DNA from: Deltaproteobacteria bacterium
GTDB lineage: Bacteria > JACQOV01
Direction of reading: 5' to 3'
Length of the DNA: 38,586 nucleotides
Assembly: GCA_016202395.1 (NCBI GenBank)
Contig: JACQOV010000083.1
Span: forward strand, 1 to 38,586
The translations under genes were made by a program, and so were the position numbers. Under the pieces are notes generated by a model that was not told where the DNA came from, did not search any database, and was given only the letters and a program-made list of their open reading frames with translations. How positions within the stretch are numbered: the stretch's first letter is position 1; each line of letters opens with the position of its first letter. Positions 14,359 through 38,544 of this stretch are shown piece after piece.

Positions 14359-15369
14359 ATGAGCCCAAAGAGCTACAAAAAGGGGTGGTTTTGGCCGGTA
14401 GCGGTGGGTGGGATCCTCGTGGTCACCGTGGTCCTCCTACTCATTTGGAGATGGATAAAGCCACCGGTTCCTCCGCAGCCGCCGGCCCCTGATTCTTCAA
14501 CGGTCTCCCACTTTACTATTTATCACGGTGACCATTTAGGATCTGTCGCTTTAGTCACCAACGAATTCGGCTTTGTCACCCAAGCTGAGAGTTACTTCCC
14601 CTATGGCGAAATTGTCTCTGAGAGTAAGGTCAATGAAAACGAGGTCACTCGTTACCTTTACACCCACCAAGAACGGGACGATTCCGAATTCTATTATTAC
14701 GGCGCAAGATACTACGATCCAACCTCAGCTCGCTTCATGAGTGTTGACCCCATAGACCAATATCCGATAAACTCGTATAATTACGTGAAGAATAGTCCCA
14801 TTTCATTTGTTGATCCGAAGGGTCTATTTCTTGAGAGAACCACACCCTATACTGAACCTATTTTTCAGATGATTTTCGGCCGTCCTAGGGATAGCCATGT
14901 GGGTGAAGCTATTACTTCAAGAAAATTTATAAAATGGGTCGAAGGTAAAAGTTTAGCGATGTTACAACATGAGGCGGATTATAGAGGGCCAGCGAGTAGT
15001 AGTGATGCGGGGGGACCTGAACGGAAGCATCGATATGTGATAGATCCTGGAAATCCAGGTGCCATTATCGATATGAGGCACTTTTTAGTGGTTGGGGAAC
15101 GGGGAGAATTGTTTGGCCTGGGAGTTGAGCTACGTCAATTGAGCGACTCTATAATAACAGAGGATGCAGAATTAGAAAGAACAGTAATGGATCCGGAAGA
15201 TTTTTATTCCAACGCATTAGGAGTCGAATTCTTCACCAATTTTTATGATTTTAACGGAGAACCCTTTTGGGAACAGTTGCAAGATTATTTTGACTATCGT
15301 CGAGCTCAATACGAACAGTACTTAGCTCAATTCTGGAAAGATTCTAAAACCATTCCTGAAGAAAACTAA
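14359..15369 (+). CDS. Short RHS repeat-associated-core protein with N-terminal TM anchor and a variable, toxin-like C-terminal domain
   Basis: Hydrophobic segment at about aa 10-32, Pro-rich linker, then YHGDHLGS...YFPYG...YYYGARYYDP...RFMSVDP...YNYVKNSPISFVDPKG; no YD-repeat shell. Confidence 0.85.
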   Translation: MSPKSYKKGWFWPVAVGGILVVTVVLLLIWRWIKPPVPPQPPAPDSSTVSHFTIYHGDHLGSVALVTNEFGFVTQAESYFPYGEIVSESKVNENEVTRYLYTHQERDDSEFYYYGARYYDPTSARFMSVDPIDQYPINSYNYVKNSPISFVDPKGLFLERTTPYTEPIFQMIFGRPRDSHVGEAITSRKFIKWVEGKSLAMLQHEADYRGPASSSDAGGPERKHRYVIDPGNPGAIIDMRHFLVVGERGELFGLGVELRQLSDSIITEDAELERTVMDPEDFYSNALGVEFFTNFYDFNGEPFWEQLQDYFDYRRAQYEQYLAQFWKDSKTIPEEN

Positions 15370-15388: not shown

Positions 15389-16411
15389 TTATCGGGGATC
15401 TTCTGTAACATCCAGCGGCACTTCTTTAAGGTATATCCTTTGATACTCCTGGTTAAGCTTGAGGTGATGTTCAGTACAACTGATTTCCACTACACATCCT
15501 ATCTCCTCATCGAAAACTACTCGAGGAGGTGCAGAAGCTGCAGACATTGAAGGATATAGGTGCTCTCGTCTTCTCTCTTGTCCCAGTACAATAGGGTACA
15601 CTCCATGATTGTACGTTATAAATCCTTCTAAATGACTTTTCTGAGGTGGGCCCATGATTTTTTCTACTTCCTCTCTTGTCATTCCTAAGCACAGATCATA
15701 GCATGCCGATAGTACCTTTCGAGCTTTGATTTCTTCTTCGTAATTCACTCCGAGAATACGCATGACAAGTCTGTCAAATAAACTAACAAGAGGGCGTTCG
15801 TCTAATGGTTCCAGGCGTTGTTGTCCAAGAGGTCCATCCGTTGTTTGAGGAGACTCATCTGGAGAATCCACATGCCCTGAATCGATCGTACTACTTACAA
15901 TGTTTAGAGTCAGATACTGCTCACCCAAATTGAGAGATGGGAAAAGTGGGTCATTCGATGTTAGACTTTTAGATGAGGTTGAATTTTCTTTCTCTTCTTT
16001 TCCGGAGGGGTCTGTAATTCTTAAAGGATTATTCCAGGCGTAGGCATAGAGATTGAGATCTTGAGGATTCGACTCATCTCGGATCGGATCGATACTCAAA
16101 AACCGGGATAACACCGGATCGTAACAGCGGGCTCCGTAATGGAAGAGCTCGGTAGAAGCATCGAATTCCTGTCCTGTATAAAAAGGGAAAGAAGATTCCC
16201 CCTCCGACGAAGACAGATCTGAAAGGATCTCTCCATCGGGGGAGTAGAGGAGGGCTTGAGTCACGTGTCCGTCTTCGTTGGTAACAATGGTAGAAGAGCC
16301 CACGTGATCCCCATGAGAGTATCGAACCCCCTCTGCCTGAACGGGGAACAGAGGCAAGATCCCCATCAGGGGGAAAAGATACCACCCTCGATGCCAATGG
16401 ACCTTTTTCAT
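15389..16411 (-). CDS. Short RHS repeat-associated-core protein with a predicted Sec signal peptide and a BamE/SmpA-like C-terminal motif
   Basis: MKK...PVQA/EG signal, then YSHGDHVGS...FYTGQEFD...HYGARCYDP...RFLSIDP...YAYAWNNPLRITDPSG; C-terminal LGMTREEVEKIMGPP. Confidence 0.82.
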   Translation of the reverse strand: MKKVHWHRGWYLFPLMGILPLFPVQAEGVRYSHGDHVGSSTIVTNEDGHVTQALLYSPDGEILSDLSSSEGESSFPFYTGQEFDASTELFHYGARCYDPVLSRFLSIDPIRDESNPQDLNLYAYAWNNPLRITDPSGKEEKENSTSSKSLTSNDPLFPSLNLGEQYLTLNIVSSTIDSGHVDSPDESPQTTDGPLGQQRLEPLDERPLVSLFDRLVMRILGVNYEEEIKARKVLSACYDLCLGMTREEVEKIMGPPQKSHLEGFITYNHGVYPIVLGQERRREHLYPSMSAASAPPRVVFDEEIGCVVEISCTEHHLKLNQEYQRIYLKEVPLDVTEDPR

Positions 16412-34773: not shown

Positions 34774-35565
34774 ATGACTCTTTCTCTATCAGATCCTGAA
34801 TCGCTCCGAGTTCATGTCAAGGTCTTTGATGGACCTTTGGATCTGCTTCTCCACCTCATCCACAAGAATGAGCTCGATATTATGGATATTCCCATCGCAA
34901 CGATTATGGAGCAATATCTAGAGCATCTTGAGCTGATGCAAGACTTAAACCTAGAGGTTGCAGGAGAGTTCCTTTTAATGGCAGCCACTCTCACTCAGAT
35001 CAAGTCCAAAATGCTCCTGCCGCCGGAGGAGGGACCCGGGGGAGCGGAAGAGGCCCTGGATCCCAGAGCGGAACTTGTGATGAAGTTGCTCGAGTACCAA
35101 AAATTTAAAGAGGCGGCAACGACTTTGGAGTCGCGCCATTGGTTAGGACGGGATGTGTTCAAACGAGGTGGACATTTTGCAGAGGTTACAGGCATAGAGA
35201 CCTCGAGGGAGAGGCCCCTGGTAGTTCCCAGCACCCTTGTTTTGGTAGACGCCTTAAAAGTGGTTCTGGATCGAATATCGGCAGGGGAGGGAACAGAGAT
35301 CGAGGGGGAACATTATTCGGTCTTTGATCAGATGAAGTGGGTTCTTTCTGAAATCTCTGTTGGAGAGGAACGGATTTTTGATTCGTTATTTGACACTCTA
35401 AGGACCCGACGACAAGTGATTGCCACCTTTTTAGCTCTTCTGGAGCTCATTCGCCTCCATCGTGTCAATGTTCTACAGGAAAGCGATAGTGGAACGATTC
35501 TAATCCGTCGTGTGGAAATAAGCGACTCCGCTTTAGGAGAAAAGGAGATCGATGAATACCTCTGA
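34774..35565 (+). CDS. scpA: Segregation and condensation protein A
   Basis: FDGPLDLLLHLI, FLLMAATL..IKS, FLALLEL. Confidence 0.95.
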   Translation: MTLSLSDPESLRVHVKVFDGPLDLLLHLIHKNELDIMDIPIATIMEQYLEHLELMQDLNLEVAGEFLLMAATLTQIKSKMLLPPEEGPGGAEEALDPRAELVMKLLEYQKFKEAATTLESRHWLGRDVFKRGGHFAEVTGIETSRERPLVVPSTLVLVDALKVVLDRISAGEGTEIEGEHYSVFDQMKWVLSEISVGEERIFDSLFDTLRTRRQVIATFLALLELIRLHRVNVLQESDSGTILIRRVEISDSALGEKEIDEYL

Positions 35566-36148
35566 AATAAAACCTTTAATCGAAGCGATTCTGTTTGCCT
35601 CTGATCAACCCGTGACCCTCGACCTTTTACGAACGATCGTGCCTGAGATTGAGAGCGCGAGAATTCAAAAAGCGATCGAGGAGCTCCAAGCGGAATTTAG
35701 CGGACATGGGATCGCCCTCTGCGAAGTAGCGGGAGGTTATCAGTTTCGAACGTGTCCGGAACATGCGGAGTGGGTAAAAAAACTCTTTGAGCTTCGACCG
35801 GCTCGTCTCACTCGCGCTGCTTTGGAGGCGCTCTCGATCATTGCTTACAGGCAACCAGTCACACGGGTTGAGATTGAGGCGATTCGAGGAGTGGACTCTG
35901 GAGGGGTGCTACAAACACTCTTAGAGCGGTCTTTAATTGAAGCCGTAGGGAAGAAAGAGGCTCCTGGACAGCCCATTCTTTACGGCACCACGAAAATTTT
36001 TATGGAACACTTTCACTTGAGAGACCTCTCCGAGCTCCCTCCACTCCAAAAGATCGAAGAGCTCAAACTCTCCTCCGCGACTCAAGAGGTTTTGGAAAAG
36101 CTCAAGCAAAATCGCACCGAAGAAACGGAGAACTCATCCCCATTGTGA
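35552..36148 (+). CDS. scpB: Segregation and condensation protein B
   Basis: IEAILFA, ALEALSIIAYRQPVTR, IRGVDS, YGTT. Confidence 0.95.
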   Translation: MNTSEIKPLIEAILFASDQPVTLDLLRTIVPEIESARIQKAIEELQAEFSGHGIALCEVAGGYQFRTCPEHAEWVKKLFELRPARLTRAALEALSIIAYRQPVTRVEIEAIRGVDSGGVLQTLLERSLIEAVGKKEAPGQPILYGTTKIFMEHFHLRDLSELPPLQKIEELKLSSATQEVLEKLKQNRTEETENSSPL

Positions 36149-36161
36149 GTGCAGACGTATC

Positions 36162-36878
36162 GTGAGCACAGGAGAAAGATTACAGAAGTTTTTAGCCCGC
36201 TCTGGAGTCGCTTCACGCCGCGCTTCTGAGCGACTCATTGAAGAGGGGAGAGTTAAAGTTAATGGCCGCATCGTCCAAGAGTTGGGCACACGCGTTTTCC
36301 CTCCTAAAGACCGTGTTGAAATCGGTGGAAAGATTGTCCAGCCTGCAGAGAAAACCTATCTTCTCCTCTATAAGCCGAAGGGGGTTTTAACGACCCTGCA
36401 CGATCCTCAGGGACGTCCAACGATTAAGGATCTTCTTCCGAGACTGAAAGGGCTTTTCCCTGTGGGGCGGCTCGATTTTGCCTCTGAAGGGTTATTGTTG
36501 GTGACTAATGATGGAGATTTAGCCCAGAAACTTTTACATCCCAAGTATCAAGTCCCTCGAACCTACGAGGTGAAGGTAGAAGGGATTGTTTCCTCTAAGG
36601 AGATGGAGAGATTACTCCAAGGGATTCTGCTGGAGGGTTTTGTTGTTCACCCTTCTAAAATAATTCTCATTCGCCAGGGAAAAAACCATTGTTGGCTTGA
36701 GGTGACGGTTCACGAGGGACGTCATCACGAAGTTCGACGTTTAATGGAGGCCGTGGGTCATCCTGTTGTGCATCTTCGGCGCGTACAGTTTGGCCCTTTA
36801 AATCTAAGAGGCCTGAGGCCTGGCGACATTCGACATCTCACCCCCAAAGAGATTCAGAGACTCCTCATGCTTCGATAA
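36162..36878 (+). CDS. rluB: rRNA pseudouridine synthase (RluB/RsuA family, S4 domain)
   Basis: RLQKFLA...SRR S4 domain, VGRLD catalytic motif, EGRHHEVRR. Confidence 0.85.
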   Translation: MSTGERLQKFLARSGVASRRASERLIEEGRVKVNGRIVQELGTRVFPPKDRVEIGGKIVQPAEKTYLLLYKPKGVLTTLHDPQGRPTIKDLLPRLKGLFPVGRLDFASEGLLLVTNDGDLAQKLLHPKYQVPRTYEVKVEGIVSSKEMERLLQGILLEGFVVHPSKIILIRQGKNHCWLEVTVHEGRHHEVRRLMEAVGHPVVHLRRVQFGPLNLRGLRPGDIRHLTPKEIQRLLMLR

Positions 36879-36901
36879 AATCCTATTACAGTAATCTTCC
36901 A

Positions 36902-36930
36902 TTGACATCTATGCTCTCACTTGATAGCCT
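36902..36930 (+). promoter_or_regulatory. Sigma70 promoter of tRNA-fMet
   Basis: TTGACA-17 bp-TAGCCT, 12 bp upstream of the tRNA 5' end. Confidence 0.7.
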
Positions 36931-36976
36931 CTTAGACACTGATGCGGGGTAGAGCAGCCCGGTAGCTCGCGAGGCT

Positions 36977-37605
36977 CAAGTGATGGATACCAAGCTGAAA
37001 GCGGATGTCGCAGAGTCTGCCGTCATAACCGAACTCTTGAAAAAAGGGTTCAAAGTTCTTAAGCCTGTGGGAGACAGATTGTCCTATGATTTAGCTCTAG
37101 ATATCGAGGGTAATCTTCTCAGGATTCAGGTGAAAAGTGCATGGCATGACGTTGAAGCCAAATGTTATGTTGTTGATGCACGAAGAACCAAAACTAACCG
37201 TAGAAAAATGGTTAGGGATCGTTATGAGGTAGAAGATTTTGACTTTGCGATTCTTTACATCGATGATCTGGGTGTGTTTTATGTCATGCCTGTTAGTGTC
37301 TTCATAAGCTATGGAAGTACCATTAGTTTGATTGAAGAAGAAAAACGGCAACGTAAACCAAAATCAGCAGAATACAGAAATCGATGGGATTTGTTATCCA
37401 TTCGGGCCCCTCAGCCTGAAAGGGTTGAGGATAACCTGTCAAACTCGGTGAAGCCCGGAAAAGGTAATACCGAGCCAAGGTCTGGTGTTTTAATCAGACA
37501 AGGTGTAGAGACTAGACGGCAGGCACCCGAAGCGATCATCGCAGGGTGAAGGTATAGTCCAGACCACGAATCTCAATGGAGAGCGGCGAAAGCCGAAGTG
37601 GTAAG
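36977..37605 (+). ncRNA. Group I intron (629 nt) inserted between U33 and C34 of tRNA-fMet
   Basis: 5' exon ends in U and intron ends in G; IGS GGGCC 37404-37408; P2 with GAAA loop 37409-37430; P3 CCTGTC/GGCAGG; P4 CTCGGT/ACCGAG; P7 GACTA/TAGTC; P8 CACCC/GGGTG; P9 region ACCAC/GTGGT with CGGC-GAAA-GCCG. Confidence 0.93.
36983..37549 (+). CDS. Intron-encoded PD-(D/E)XK homing endonuclease, I-Ssp6803I-like
   Basis: TKLKADVAE...KPVGDRLSYDL...QVKS...RRTKTNRR...DFDF...KRQRKP; D8, E11, D36, Q49, K51 counted from ATG 36983; ORF starts in the P1 loop. Confidence 0.92.
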   Translation: MDTKLKADVAESAVITELLKKGFKVLKPVGDRLSYDLALDIEGNLLRIQVKSAWHDVEAKCYVVDARRTKTNRRKMVRDRYEVEDFDFAILYIDDLGVFYVMPVSVFISYGSTISLIEEEKRQRKPKSAEYRNRWDLLSIRAPQPERVEDNLSNSVKPGKGNTEPRSGVLIRQGVETRRQAPEAIIAG

Positions 37606-37650
37606 CATAACCTCGAAGTCGGTGGTTCAAATCCACCCCCCGCTACCAAA

Positions 37651-38544
37651 TTAAAAGGGCAATTTAAATCCTGTAATCCGATAGAGGGCCTCTTTGTATT
37701 TTTCAGAGGTCTTTTGAACAATCTCCGGAGGGAGTTCTGGAGCCGGTGGCTTCTTATTCCATCCCATGGAAGTCAGGTAATCCCGAATAAATTGTTTATC
37801 GAAACTCGACTGTGAACGCCCTGGTTGATACGGGTCCTTGGGCCAGAATCGAGAAGAATCAGGCGTCAAGACCTCGTCAATCAAAATGAGGCGGTCTTGG
37901 TAGAGGCCAAACTCAAACTTGGTGTCGGCAATGATAATCCCTTTTGATTTGGCATGCTCAGCCCCTTTTTGATAAAGCTCTAAACTCTTAAGCTGAACTT
38001 GCTGAGAGAGTTCTTTCCCGATCCGTCTCTCAACCTCTCCAAAAGAGATATTTTGATCATGATCCCCCTTTTCCGCTTTGGTGGAAGGGGTAAAGATCGG
38101 ATGTGGAAGAGGAGAGGATTCCATCAATCCCTCTGGGAGCGAGATGCCACACACACTTTTCGACTCCAGATATTCTTTATAGCCGCTTCCTGCAAGATAA
38201 CCTCGAACGATGGCTTCGATAGGGAGGGGTTTCGCTTTATGAACAATGAGGCTCCGTTCTCGAAACTCCTCTGCGATGGAATGATCGGAGATGAATTCCG
38301 AAAGATCTTTTTCTATTAAATGATTTTGAATCACGGAACTTAAACGCTTTAACCAAAAACGGGTCATTGCGGTTAGAACGCGCCCTTTGTCGGGAACAGG
38401 TGTGGGAAGAACCACATCAAAAGCGGAAACCCGATCGGTTGTCACTACCAAGAGGAATGGATCGAGATCGTAAATGTCTCGAACCTTTCCTCGAAACAGG
38501 AGTTTTAAGCCAGGAATTTCAGAAGAAAATAGAGGCGCCTTCAC
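37651..38544 (-). CDS. purC: Phosphoribosylaminoimidazole-succinocarboxamide (SAICAR) synthase
   Basis: GKVRDIY, TDRVSAFD, RGYLAGSG, FTPSTKA, ADTKFEFG, DEVLTPDSSRFW, DKQFIRD. Confidence 0.97.
   Translation of the reverse strand: MKAPLFSSEIPGLKLLFRGKVRDIYDLDPFLLVVTTDRVSAFDVVLPTPVPDKGRVLTAMTRFWLKRLSSVIQNHLIEKDLSEFISDHSIAEEFRERSLIVHKAKPLPIEAIVRGYLAGSGYKEYLESKSVCGISLPEGLMESSPLPHPIFTPSTKAEKGDHDQNISFGEVERRIGKELSQQVQLKSLELYQKGAEHAKSKGIIIADTKFEFGLYQDRLILIDEVLTPDSSRFWPKDPYQPGRSQSSFDKQFIRDYLTSMGWNKKPPAPELPPEIVQKTSEKYKEALYRITGFKLPF

Follow-up and report, generated by a model that had tools for sequence, protein, structure and literature searches.

Contig JACQOV010000083.1 of assembly GCA_016202395.1, from a groundwater bacterium deposited under the name Deltaproteobacteria bacterium, carries an initiator-type tRNA-Met(CAU) gene (tRNA-fMet) at 36943–37648 that is interrupted between U33 and C34 by a 629-nucleotide (nt) group I intron. 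The stretch analysed here (the window; 38,586 nt) is the entire 38.6-kb contig. Judging from the sequence, we consider it highly probable that the element is a working, IC3-like intron in the initiator tRNA of a non-cyanobacterial host, homologous to the cyanobacterial tRNA-fMet intron and carrying in its P1 loop an intact gene for a homing endonuclease of the I-Ssp6803I type. An earlier note on this DNA had described much of the same anatomy and had read the element as an intron that spread from cyanobacteria into a deltaproteobacterium. The anatomy holds up; the route of spread does not appear to, as the phylogeny below indicates. What is new here is a host range much wider than that found in print; the kind of element is already known.

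The split initiator tRNA gene

The gene consists of three parts, with the 5′ exon ending in ...GGCU and the 3′ exon beginning with CAUAACC.

36943..36976, + strand: tRNA-fMet 5′ exon (positions 1–33, last base U33), from ARAGORN on the in-silico spliced gene and the sequence
36977..37605, + strand: group I intron, 629 nt, starting directly after U33 and ending with the terminal G (ωG), from the sequence, Rfam, ARAGORN and related loci
37606..37648, + strand: tRNA-fMet 3′ exon, with anticodon C34 as its first base and CCA encoded at its end, from the sequence, ARAGORN and related loci

Bacterial initiator tRNAs are marked by an unpaired 1:72 position, an A11:U24 pair and three consecutive G:C pairs in the anticodon stem. 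Joining the exons in silico yields a 77-nt tRNA-Met(CAT) that ARAGORN folds into a canonical initiator-type cloverleaf with 1:72 unpaired (U1·U72), and the D stem of the spliced tRNA has A11:U24. The dinucleotide CA occurs at both junctions, allowing three cut positions with an identical spliced product; we assign the cut to U33/C34, the site that the earlier note had named, because it is the sole position of the three at which both group I rules fit, with U36976 at −1 and G37605 as the last intron base. In all 56 loci of the exon-pattern scan described below, as in the window, the exon ends in U and the intron in G.

The suggestion that standard pipelines could miss this tRNA proved correct: ARAGORN at default settings reports no tRNA in the whole window, and Rfam at gathering thresholds reports no match in it. 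With introns enabled, ARAGORN detects the gene, but places the intron at 37/38, the archaeal/eukaryotic position, and miscalls the tRNA as tRNA-Leu(CAA). Acceptor stems are fully paired in the genome's two other tRNA(CAT) genes, one of which resembles elongator tRNA-Met and the other tRNA-Ile2, and no second initiator-type tRNA was found in the 89%-complete assembly, leaving the split gene as the only candidate. Because the sole initiator tRNA found depends on splicing, the intron is very probably splicing-competent. An essential initiator tRNA thus escapes annotation in this genome and, very probably, in hundreds of metagenome-assembled genomes (MAGs); tRNA inventories and completeness checks are distorted because default tRNA finders and Rfam thresholds miss the gene. 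Promoter-like and terminator-like sites in 36800–37800 do not rise above chance (2 against 1.6 expected and 1 against 0.9 expected, respectively), and no RNA sequencing run was listed as containing the stretch.

A complete ribozyme core

In E-value mode, the Rfam model Intron_gpI (RF00028) matches 37381–37580 over its full length (model positions 1–253 of 253, E 2.6e-10), and all 13 related loci given to Rfam also match it (39–81 bits, 10 of the 13 at 50 bits or more). The core is 69–75% identical, over 190–199 aligned nt, to five cyanobacterial tRNA-fMet intron cores inserted at the same site. We aligned the last ≤245 nt of 57 homologous introns and scored an explicit P2–P9 structure that includes the pseudoknotted P7 and the outer P9 stem.

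37403..37408, + strand: internal guide sequence, 3′ strand of P1; GGG nearly invariant in 57 introns, pairing predicted from group I rules
37411..37428, + strand: P2 hairpin with GNRA loop; compensatory changes in 7 of 7 pairs
37435–37440 with 37518–37523, + strand: P3, enclosing P4, P5, P6 and the 5′ strand of P7; scored helix
37444–37450 with 37468–37474, + strand: P4; scored helix
37454–37455 with 37463–37464, + strand: P5; scored helix
37480–37486 with 37493–37499, + strand: P6; scored helix
37508–37514 (5′ strand) and 37555–37560 (3′ strand), + strand: P7, forming a pseudoknot with P3; 6 of 6 pairs invariant
37524–37529 with 37543–37548, + strand: P8, followed by J8/7; compensatory changes in 6 of 6 pairs
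37563–37567 with 37598–37602, + strand: P9 outer stem (domain 37563..37605); scored helix
37571–37574 with 37579–37582, + strand: P9a hairpin; scored helix
37584–37587 with 37592–37595, + strand: P9b GNRA hairpin; scored helix
37605, + strand: terminal intron G, from the sequence

Across the 57 introns, 96.7% of the cells of this 56-pair family structure are standard pairs. Shuffling partners lowers the value to 81.2 ± 0.4%, with the observed value reached in 0 of 500 shuffles, and sliding partners by 1–3 columns lowers it to 23.6–41.2%. Compensatory double changes occur in 37 of the 56 pairs, against 27.4 after shuffling and 17–22 after sliding; every pair of P2, P6, P8 and P9a covaries, and P7, all six pairs of which are invariant, is uninformative on covariation. 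In the window itself 53 of the 56 pairs are standard, the exceptions being a terminal G–A in P8 and two gap cells in P9a, and every position that is invariant across the 57 introns, including those in P7, J3/4, J6/7 and J8/7, is retained. The earlier note had likewise judged the core complete. RNAalifold proposed that the guide pairs with the 3′ strand of P7; this was rejected as an artefact of the P3/P7 pseudoknot, and the explicit P7 was used in its place.

The guide GGGC (37404–37407) is predicted to pair with intron base C+1 and with exon bases U−1 (a U·G wobble), C−2 and G−3. This P1 pairing is derived from group I rules, because exon bases −1 to −4 are invariant and no covariation is possible. 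In most relatives GGGC is directly preceded by AUG, a triplet that might form P10 by pairing with bases 1–3 of the 3′ exon. Both P2 and the last hairpin are capped by GNRA loops, as is typical of IC3 tRNA introns.

An intact endonuclease gene in the P1 loop

36983..37549, + strand: homing endonuclease open reading frame (ORF), 188 amino acids, in the P1 loop, from PF11645, 2OST_A and invariant residues

Because it starts 6 nt past the 5′ splice site, the ORF sits in the P1 loop. Its product matches PF11645 (PDDEXK_5) at 150.3 bits against a cut-off of 26.1, over profile positions 1–137 of 138 and free of stops and frameshifts, and matches the I-Ssp6803I structure (2OST_A, E 5.1e-50) over residues 2–140; no NCBIfam model matches it. 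The G+C content is 0.37–0.435 over the ORF, 0.44–0.555 over the flanks and 0.493 over the genome; the gene is AT-richer than its surroundings and intact, as first observed.

Aligning 66 homologues, of which 12 come from the cyanobacterial phylum, reveals 34 invariant residues. Among these are E11, D36, Q49 and K51, which align with identical residues in 2OST and are reportedly the active-site residues of I-Ssp6803I (Zhao et al. 2007). The earlier note had placed the catalytic residues at the numbering of that enzyme, and these four residues are kept in 66 of 66 sequences.

The PD-(D/E)XK domain comprises residues 1–140 and ends near 37402; the last ~48 codons span P1′, P2, P3, P4–P6, P7 and P8 before a TGA stop at 37547–37549. 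Many relatives stop 15–26 nt past the guide, giving proteins of 145–147 amino acids, near the 150 of the Synechocystis prototype, and four (L012, L014, L035 and L042) show the same read-through as the window. The ribosome-binding site of the ORF is probably a GAGG situated 8 nt before the ATG, within the anticodon stem of the tRNA; this GAGG also belongs to the 5′ strand of P1. I-Ssp6803I is described in one report (PMC3384342) as tetrameric, its cleavage site being a ~23-bp pseudo-palindrome in the intron-less tRNA-fMet gene. For the window, homing activity is plausible given the intact and conserved ORF, and it is from the intact ORF that we infer mobility.

A large family, mostly outside cyanobacteria

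A scan for the endonuclease, with one genome per species, returned 71 loci; the scan is biased to close relatives because its peptide patterns were drawn from the query. The majority are titled Candidatus Omnitrophota or Omnitrophica, and others come from binned MAGs titled Planctomycetia or Planctomycetales. Single loci are titled Deltaproteobacteria, Myxococcales, Bacteroidetes, Margulisiibacteriota, Melainabacteria and Nostoc, and two are titled Patescibacteria, which places the element in at least seven differently labelled bacterial groups. Two genomes titled ‘Planctomycet...’ or uncultured (G045 and G048) are assigned by the genome tool to the phylum of an Omnitrophota genome. ARAGORN with introns enabled calls an intron-bearing tRNA in 63 of the 71 loci, and a stricter exon pattern (...GGCT, an intron ending in G, then CATAACC...) finds the split in 56; the 15 loci outside this pattern include cyanobacterial-type exons (CGCGGGA...) and contig ends. 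The 56 loci fall into three layouts.

43 of 56 loci, 620–675 nt: introns with an ORF starting 2–9 nt past the splice site
10 of 56 loci, 193–243 nt: short ORF-less introns
3 of 56 loci, 272–442 nt: introns with a partly deleted ORF

Among the 46 long introns, the window included, 39 have open frames of 139–188 amino acids and seven have frames truncated to 28–123. In L041, L062, L065, L066, L067, L071, L078 and L079 the ribozyme is conserved and the ORF is truncated (28–123 amino acids) or partly deleted (272–442-nt introns); such loci look like decay stages of a homing cycle.

The cyanobacterial loci (L080–L091) have a U33/C34 junction identical to that of the window, so position and architecture are, as proposed, those of the cyanobacterial tRNA-fMet introns: the same ...GGCT/CATAACC... 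site and the same endonuclease family. Four of them (L080, L081, L088 and L091) have a 654–655-nt intron with an internal ORF, the length reported for Synechocystis. In L082, L083, L085 (L085/L056), L086, L087, L089 and L090 the intron is ORF-less (237–244 nt) and the I-Ssp6803I-type gene stands free beside the tRNA. Outside cyanobacteria the same free-standing arrangement occurs at L039, L054, L057, L060, L061, L063, L064, L074, L076 and L077, with only a fragment of the gene matching at L074 and L077. Across both sets the free-standing gene lies 57 nt to ~1.1 kb from a tRNA-fMet whose ORF-less intron, of 193–244 nt, occupies the same site. Intron-borne and adjacent layouts are thus both found within and beyond cyanobacteria, and the family may preserve every stage of a homing cycle, with free-standing genes next to ORF-less introns, genes borne by introns, and genes in decay. 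A pathway from free-standing to intronic endonuclease has reportedly been proposed for phage introns (by Bonocora & Shub 2009 and by Zeng et al. 2009), and the occurrence of both layouts resembles it.

Prevalence gives the same picture of a family widespread outside cyanobacteria, in which the window is a member and not an exception. PF11645 exceeds its cut-off in 53 of 301 sampled genomes from the phylum of an Omnitrophota genome, about three times the 18 of 301 sampled genomes from the phylum of a Nostoc genome, for which a stricter listing threshold (E ≤ 1e-10) applied; control genomes gave 0 of 14 in both phylum searches. A wider protein search returned 1116 homologue clusters at E ≤ 1e-20. 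NCBI names several of the Omnitrophota homologues ‘group I intron-associated PD-(D/E)XK endonuclease’, so the occurrence of the family in Omnitrophota is already in databases. The literature consulted describes the tRNA-fMet intron and I-Ssp6803I as cyanobacterial, and a literature search, with subscription journals mostly outside its coverage, found no description of a tRNA-fMet group I intron outside cyanobacteria. As a side observation, the PF11645 matches of the Omnitrophota phylum form two score classes (~125–160 and ~92–106 bits), which suggests a second, divergent subfamily, and some of its genomes carry two or three copies (for example G204, G059 and G341).

A quick maximum-likelihood tree, built from 66 endonuclease domains and rooted only at the midpoint, groups the 12 cyanobacterial-phylum endonucleases in one clade (Shimodaira–Hasegawa-like approximate likelihood ratio test (SH-aLRT) 99). 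The window lies outside it, in a clade of 39 rows (SH-aLRT 84) made up of MAGs labelled Omnitrophota and others that are non-cyanobacterial; it has no supported sister there, and its highest identity is 78%. In the ribozyme DNA tree it is likewise a long branch with no supported sister. Across the two trees its nearest relatives are 78–79% identical. These positions argue against spread from cyanobacteria into this host; the window counts as a divergent member of a radiation of the element that is large and for the most part non-cyanobacterial. Supported sisters with different phylum labels, namely Margulisiibacteriota with Patescibacteria (99) and Myxococcales-labelled with Omnitrophota (98), fit cross-phylum movement, the labels being unverified titles and the tree unrooted.

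We tentatively suggest, leaving the matter somewhat in doubt, that the element has a broad host range, with its main reservoir in Omnitrophota and other uncultured, largely groundwater phyla and with cyanobacteria as a side branch. Phylum crossing would then be possible because the anticodon-arm target in the initiator tRNA is near-identical in all bacteria, and the family would offer a natural system for the study of mobile intron formation. The loci form a large natural data set on cross-phylum homing, on the co-evolution of a PD-(D/E)XK enzyme with its tRNA target and on the transition, in either direction, between free-standing and intron-borne genes.

Host genome

The assembly comprises 1.9 Mb in 108 contigs, with 0.05% contamination. 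Upstream of the tRNA the window encodes lpxC, a type II secretion operon, rpsA, mutS, a myxosortase-core protein, glnD, xerD, scpA, scpB and rluB; purC lies downstream on the opposite strand. These flanks had been said to look deltaproteobacterial, and the evidence is divided. GspC of the secretion operon matches the deltaproteobacterial model NF041515 (GspC_delta) above cut-off and the myxosortase-core match points the same way; on the other side, RpsA and MutS are just 39–53% identical to every titled genome tested. RpsA is 53% and 52% identical to Myxococcales- and Deltaproteobacteria-labelled MAGs, respectively, and 45–49% to the others tested. MutS is 39–46% identical to all titled genomes tested, including Nostoc (41%) and Melainabacteria (40%), with a short N-terminal piece at 51% in the Myxococcales-labelled MAG. 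The two proteins do not discriminate between titled genomes. The spacing between rpsA and mutS is ~5 kb in the Myxococcales-labelled MAG, as in the window.

No other genome of the host's phylum, class, order, family or genus is present in the genome collection searched; either the host is the lone representative of a deep lineage in that collection or its classification is missing. Its 40 genome-level relatives are all kin at the level of the domain and match the window solely in the tRNA exons. The host is not a cyanobacterium, as the earlier note had also held, nor is it close to any intron-bearing genome tested. A ‘delta-like’ affiliation is plausible, if unproven, on these sequence comparisons.

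Proposed mechanism and alternative explanations

From the anatomy of the element, its homology to the prototype, the structure conserved across the family and the intact ORF, we infer splicing, translation and cleavage along the following lines. Transcription of the split gene would give a precursor tRNA in which P1 forms between the guide GGGC and the exon end ...GGCU. A free guanosine, held in P7, would attack after U33, the terminal G would occupy the same site, and joining of the exons would restore the CAU anticodon. The endonuclease would be translated from the unspliced precursor by way of the GAGG in the anticodon stem, and since this GAGG is both the likely ribosome-binding site and part of the 5′ strand of P1, folding of P1 and translation should compete. 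The enzyme would be expected to cleave intron-less tRNA-fMet genes near the anticodon loop, with repair off the intron-bearing copy leading to spread of the intron (homing). Mechanistic novelty is low, as the element would work as already described for Synechocystis.

Several observations weigh against this account. The Intron_gpI score of 45.9 bits falls below the gathering score of 50, P1 with the exon end has just ~4–5 base pairs, the window has UUC where relatives have AUG, which makes for a weak P10, and one P8 pair is the G–A noted above. The anticodon stem has only two consecutive G:C pairs (30:40 and 31:39) together with A29:U41, not three; A29:U41 is also present in many related loci. 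The ORF extends ~143 nt beyond the guide into the ribozyme core, and its C-terminal 48 residues may be junk and might affect the enzyme. At 89% completeness the assembly may lack another initiator tRNA gene. Finally, no contig in four metagenome runs crosses 37530–37618, and the 3′ junction is spanned by a 30-nt overlap between two contigs of the run that may be the assembly source.

It is unlikely, yet conceivable, that the intron splices and its endonuclease no longer drives homing, being inactive, decaying or engaged in another role such as ribozyme folding, with the intron now inherited vertically. The long unsupported branches of both ribozyme and endonuclease would accord with such a history, since a nearest identity of 78–79% gives no sign of recent transfer. 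Decay is also frequent in the family (truncated ORFs in 7 of 46 long introns, partial deletion in 3 of 56 loci), and the 48-residue read-through tail of the window is unusual. The endonuclease domain, however, is full length and free of stops and frameshifts, all 34 family-invariant residues are present (as the construction of the count entails), and the ORF lies at the usual position, 6 nt past the splice site with GAGG upstream.

We regard as very improbable an error of assembly or binning in which the intron-bearing tRNA of another organism, for example an omnitrophotan, was joined to this contig, so that the host would be wrong. The contig ends 1 kb from the element, tRNA-fMet exons barely differ between organisms and break de Bruijn graphs, the interval 37530–37618 is unbridged, and the same samples hold many other tRNA-fMet genes. 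Four metagenome runs from a single groundwater study nonetheless contain the stretch, and the assembly may derive from one of them. Contigs with no differences link the scpB/rluB flank to the 5′ exon and the intron in that run (35500–37611) and in a second (36199–37529), and shorter ones do so in two further runs (36797–37247 and 36837–37039). All 16 related loci that have U1 in the 5′ exon also have U72 in the 3′ exon, as the window does, which argues that the two tRNA halves belong together, and no Omnitrophota locus has the same exon and intron sequences (≤79% identity). The many other tRNA-fMet genes appear as loose ends at 36978. An intron-less allele of the window's organism was considered as their source and rejected, because the contigs concerned carry 3–4 differences in ~36 nt; they are uninterrupted tRNA-fMet genes of other organisms.

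A dead element, with a non-splicing ribozyme in a tRNA pseudogene and the true initiator gene missing from the incomplete assembly, could account for the sub-threshold Rfam score, the weak P10 and the non-standard P8 pair, but we give it very little credence against the retention of the invariant positions of 57 introns (P7, J3/4, J6/7 and J8/7 included), the 53 of 56 standard pairs, the canonical initiator-type cloverleaf of the exons and the finding of no other initiator tRNA in the assembly.

Other features of the genome

The host genome (G000) contains three tRNA genes interrupted by group I introns in 1.9 Mb. The second is a tRNA-Asn(GUU) gene (contig C1:4026–4650, + strand; locus L092:527–1151) with a 550-nt intron after the second anticodon base that matches Intron_gpI at 73.9 bits, above the gathering score; the exon ends in U and the intron in G. 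A 165-amino-acid open frame matches HNH weakly (PF01844, 17.4 bits against a cut-off of 21.4). No bacterial group I intron is known to us in tRNA-Asn, though no literature search was aimed at one. The third is a tRNA-Arg(UCU) gene (contig C76:10723–11094, − strand; locus L093) with a 283-nt group I intron (Intron_gpI, 45.1 bits); passages of one study report interrupted tRNA-Arg-TCT genes in Beggiatoaceae (PMC4853749). Were the element indeed of broad host range, this host would count as an unusually intron-rich member of a poorly known lineage.

The window also holds two convergent ORFs, at 14359–15369 (+ strand) and 15389–16411 (− strand), which immediately follow the type II secretion operon, each with an RHS repeat-associated core (TIGR03696, ~72 bits each), which may be toxin C-terminal cassettes.

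Comparison with known systems

The closest characterized counterpart is the tRNA-fMet intron of Synechocystis sp. PCC 6803, which passages of two sources give as 655 nt long with a 150-amino-acid I-Ssp6803I (PMC1995217, PMC11622646). The window shares with it the gene, the insertion point (...GGCU/CAUAACC...), the start of the ORF a few nt past the 5′ splice site in the P1 loop and a similar length (629 against 655 nt). With cyanobacterial tRNA-fMet introns it shares a ribozyme core of the identity given above and the PD-(D/E)XK endonuclease family. It differs in its non-cyanobacterial host and in an endonuclease that falls outside the cyanobacterial clade. The ATG lies 6 nt past the splice site in the window as against ~20 nt in cyanobacterial introns, the ORF of 188 amino acids reads through the ribozyme core to J8/7 whereas the Synechocystis enzyme has 150, and the anticodon stem of the target is CGAGG/CCUCG in the window and UCGGG/CCCGA in cyanobacteria. 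The Synechocystis intron and its enzyme were reportedly treated in Biniszkiewicz et al. 1994 and Bonocora & Shub 2001.

The window has the same architecture as the introns in MAGs of Omnitrophota and other uncultured phyla (L009–L079; 43 loci, 620–675 nt), along with their endonuclease clade and ribozyme structure. Unlike them, it sits among flanking genes shared with none of these loci except L014 (scpA/scpB, with scpB 48% identical), and unlike most of them it lacks the AUG 5′ of the guide. It forms a long separate branch. Other bacterial IC3 tRNA introns interrupt tRNA-Leu(UAA) in Anabaena, tRNA-Ile(CAU) in Azoarcus and tRNA-Arg(CCU) in Agrobacterium, and are not known to contain an ORF. 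The window's intron resembles them in being a small anticodon-loop ribozyme with a short P1, GNRA loops on P2 and P9 and a P3–P9 core conforming to RF00028; the tRNA that this intron interrupts, the initiator, is a different one.

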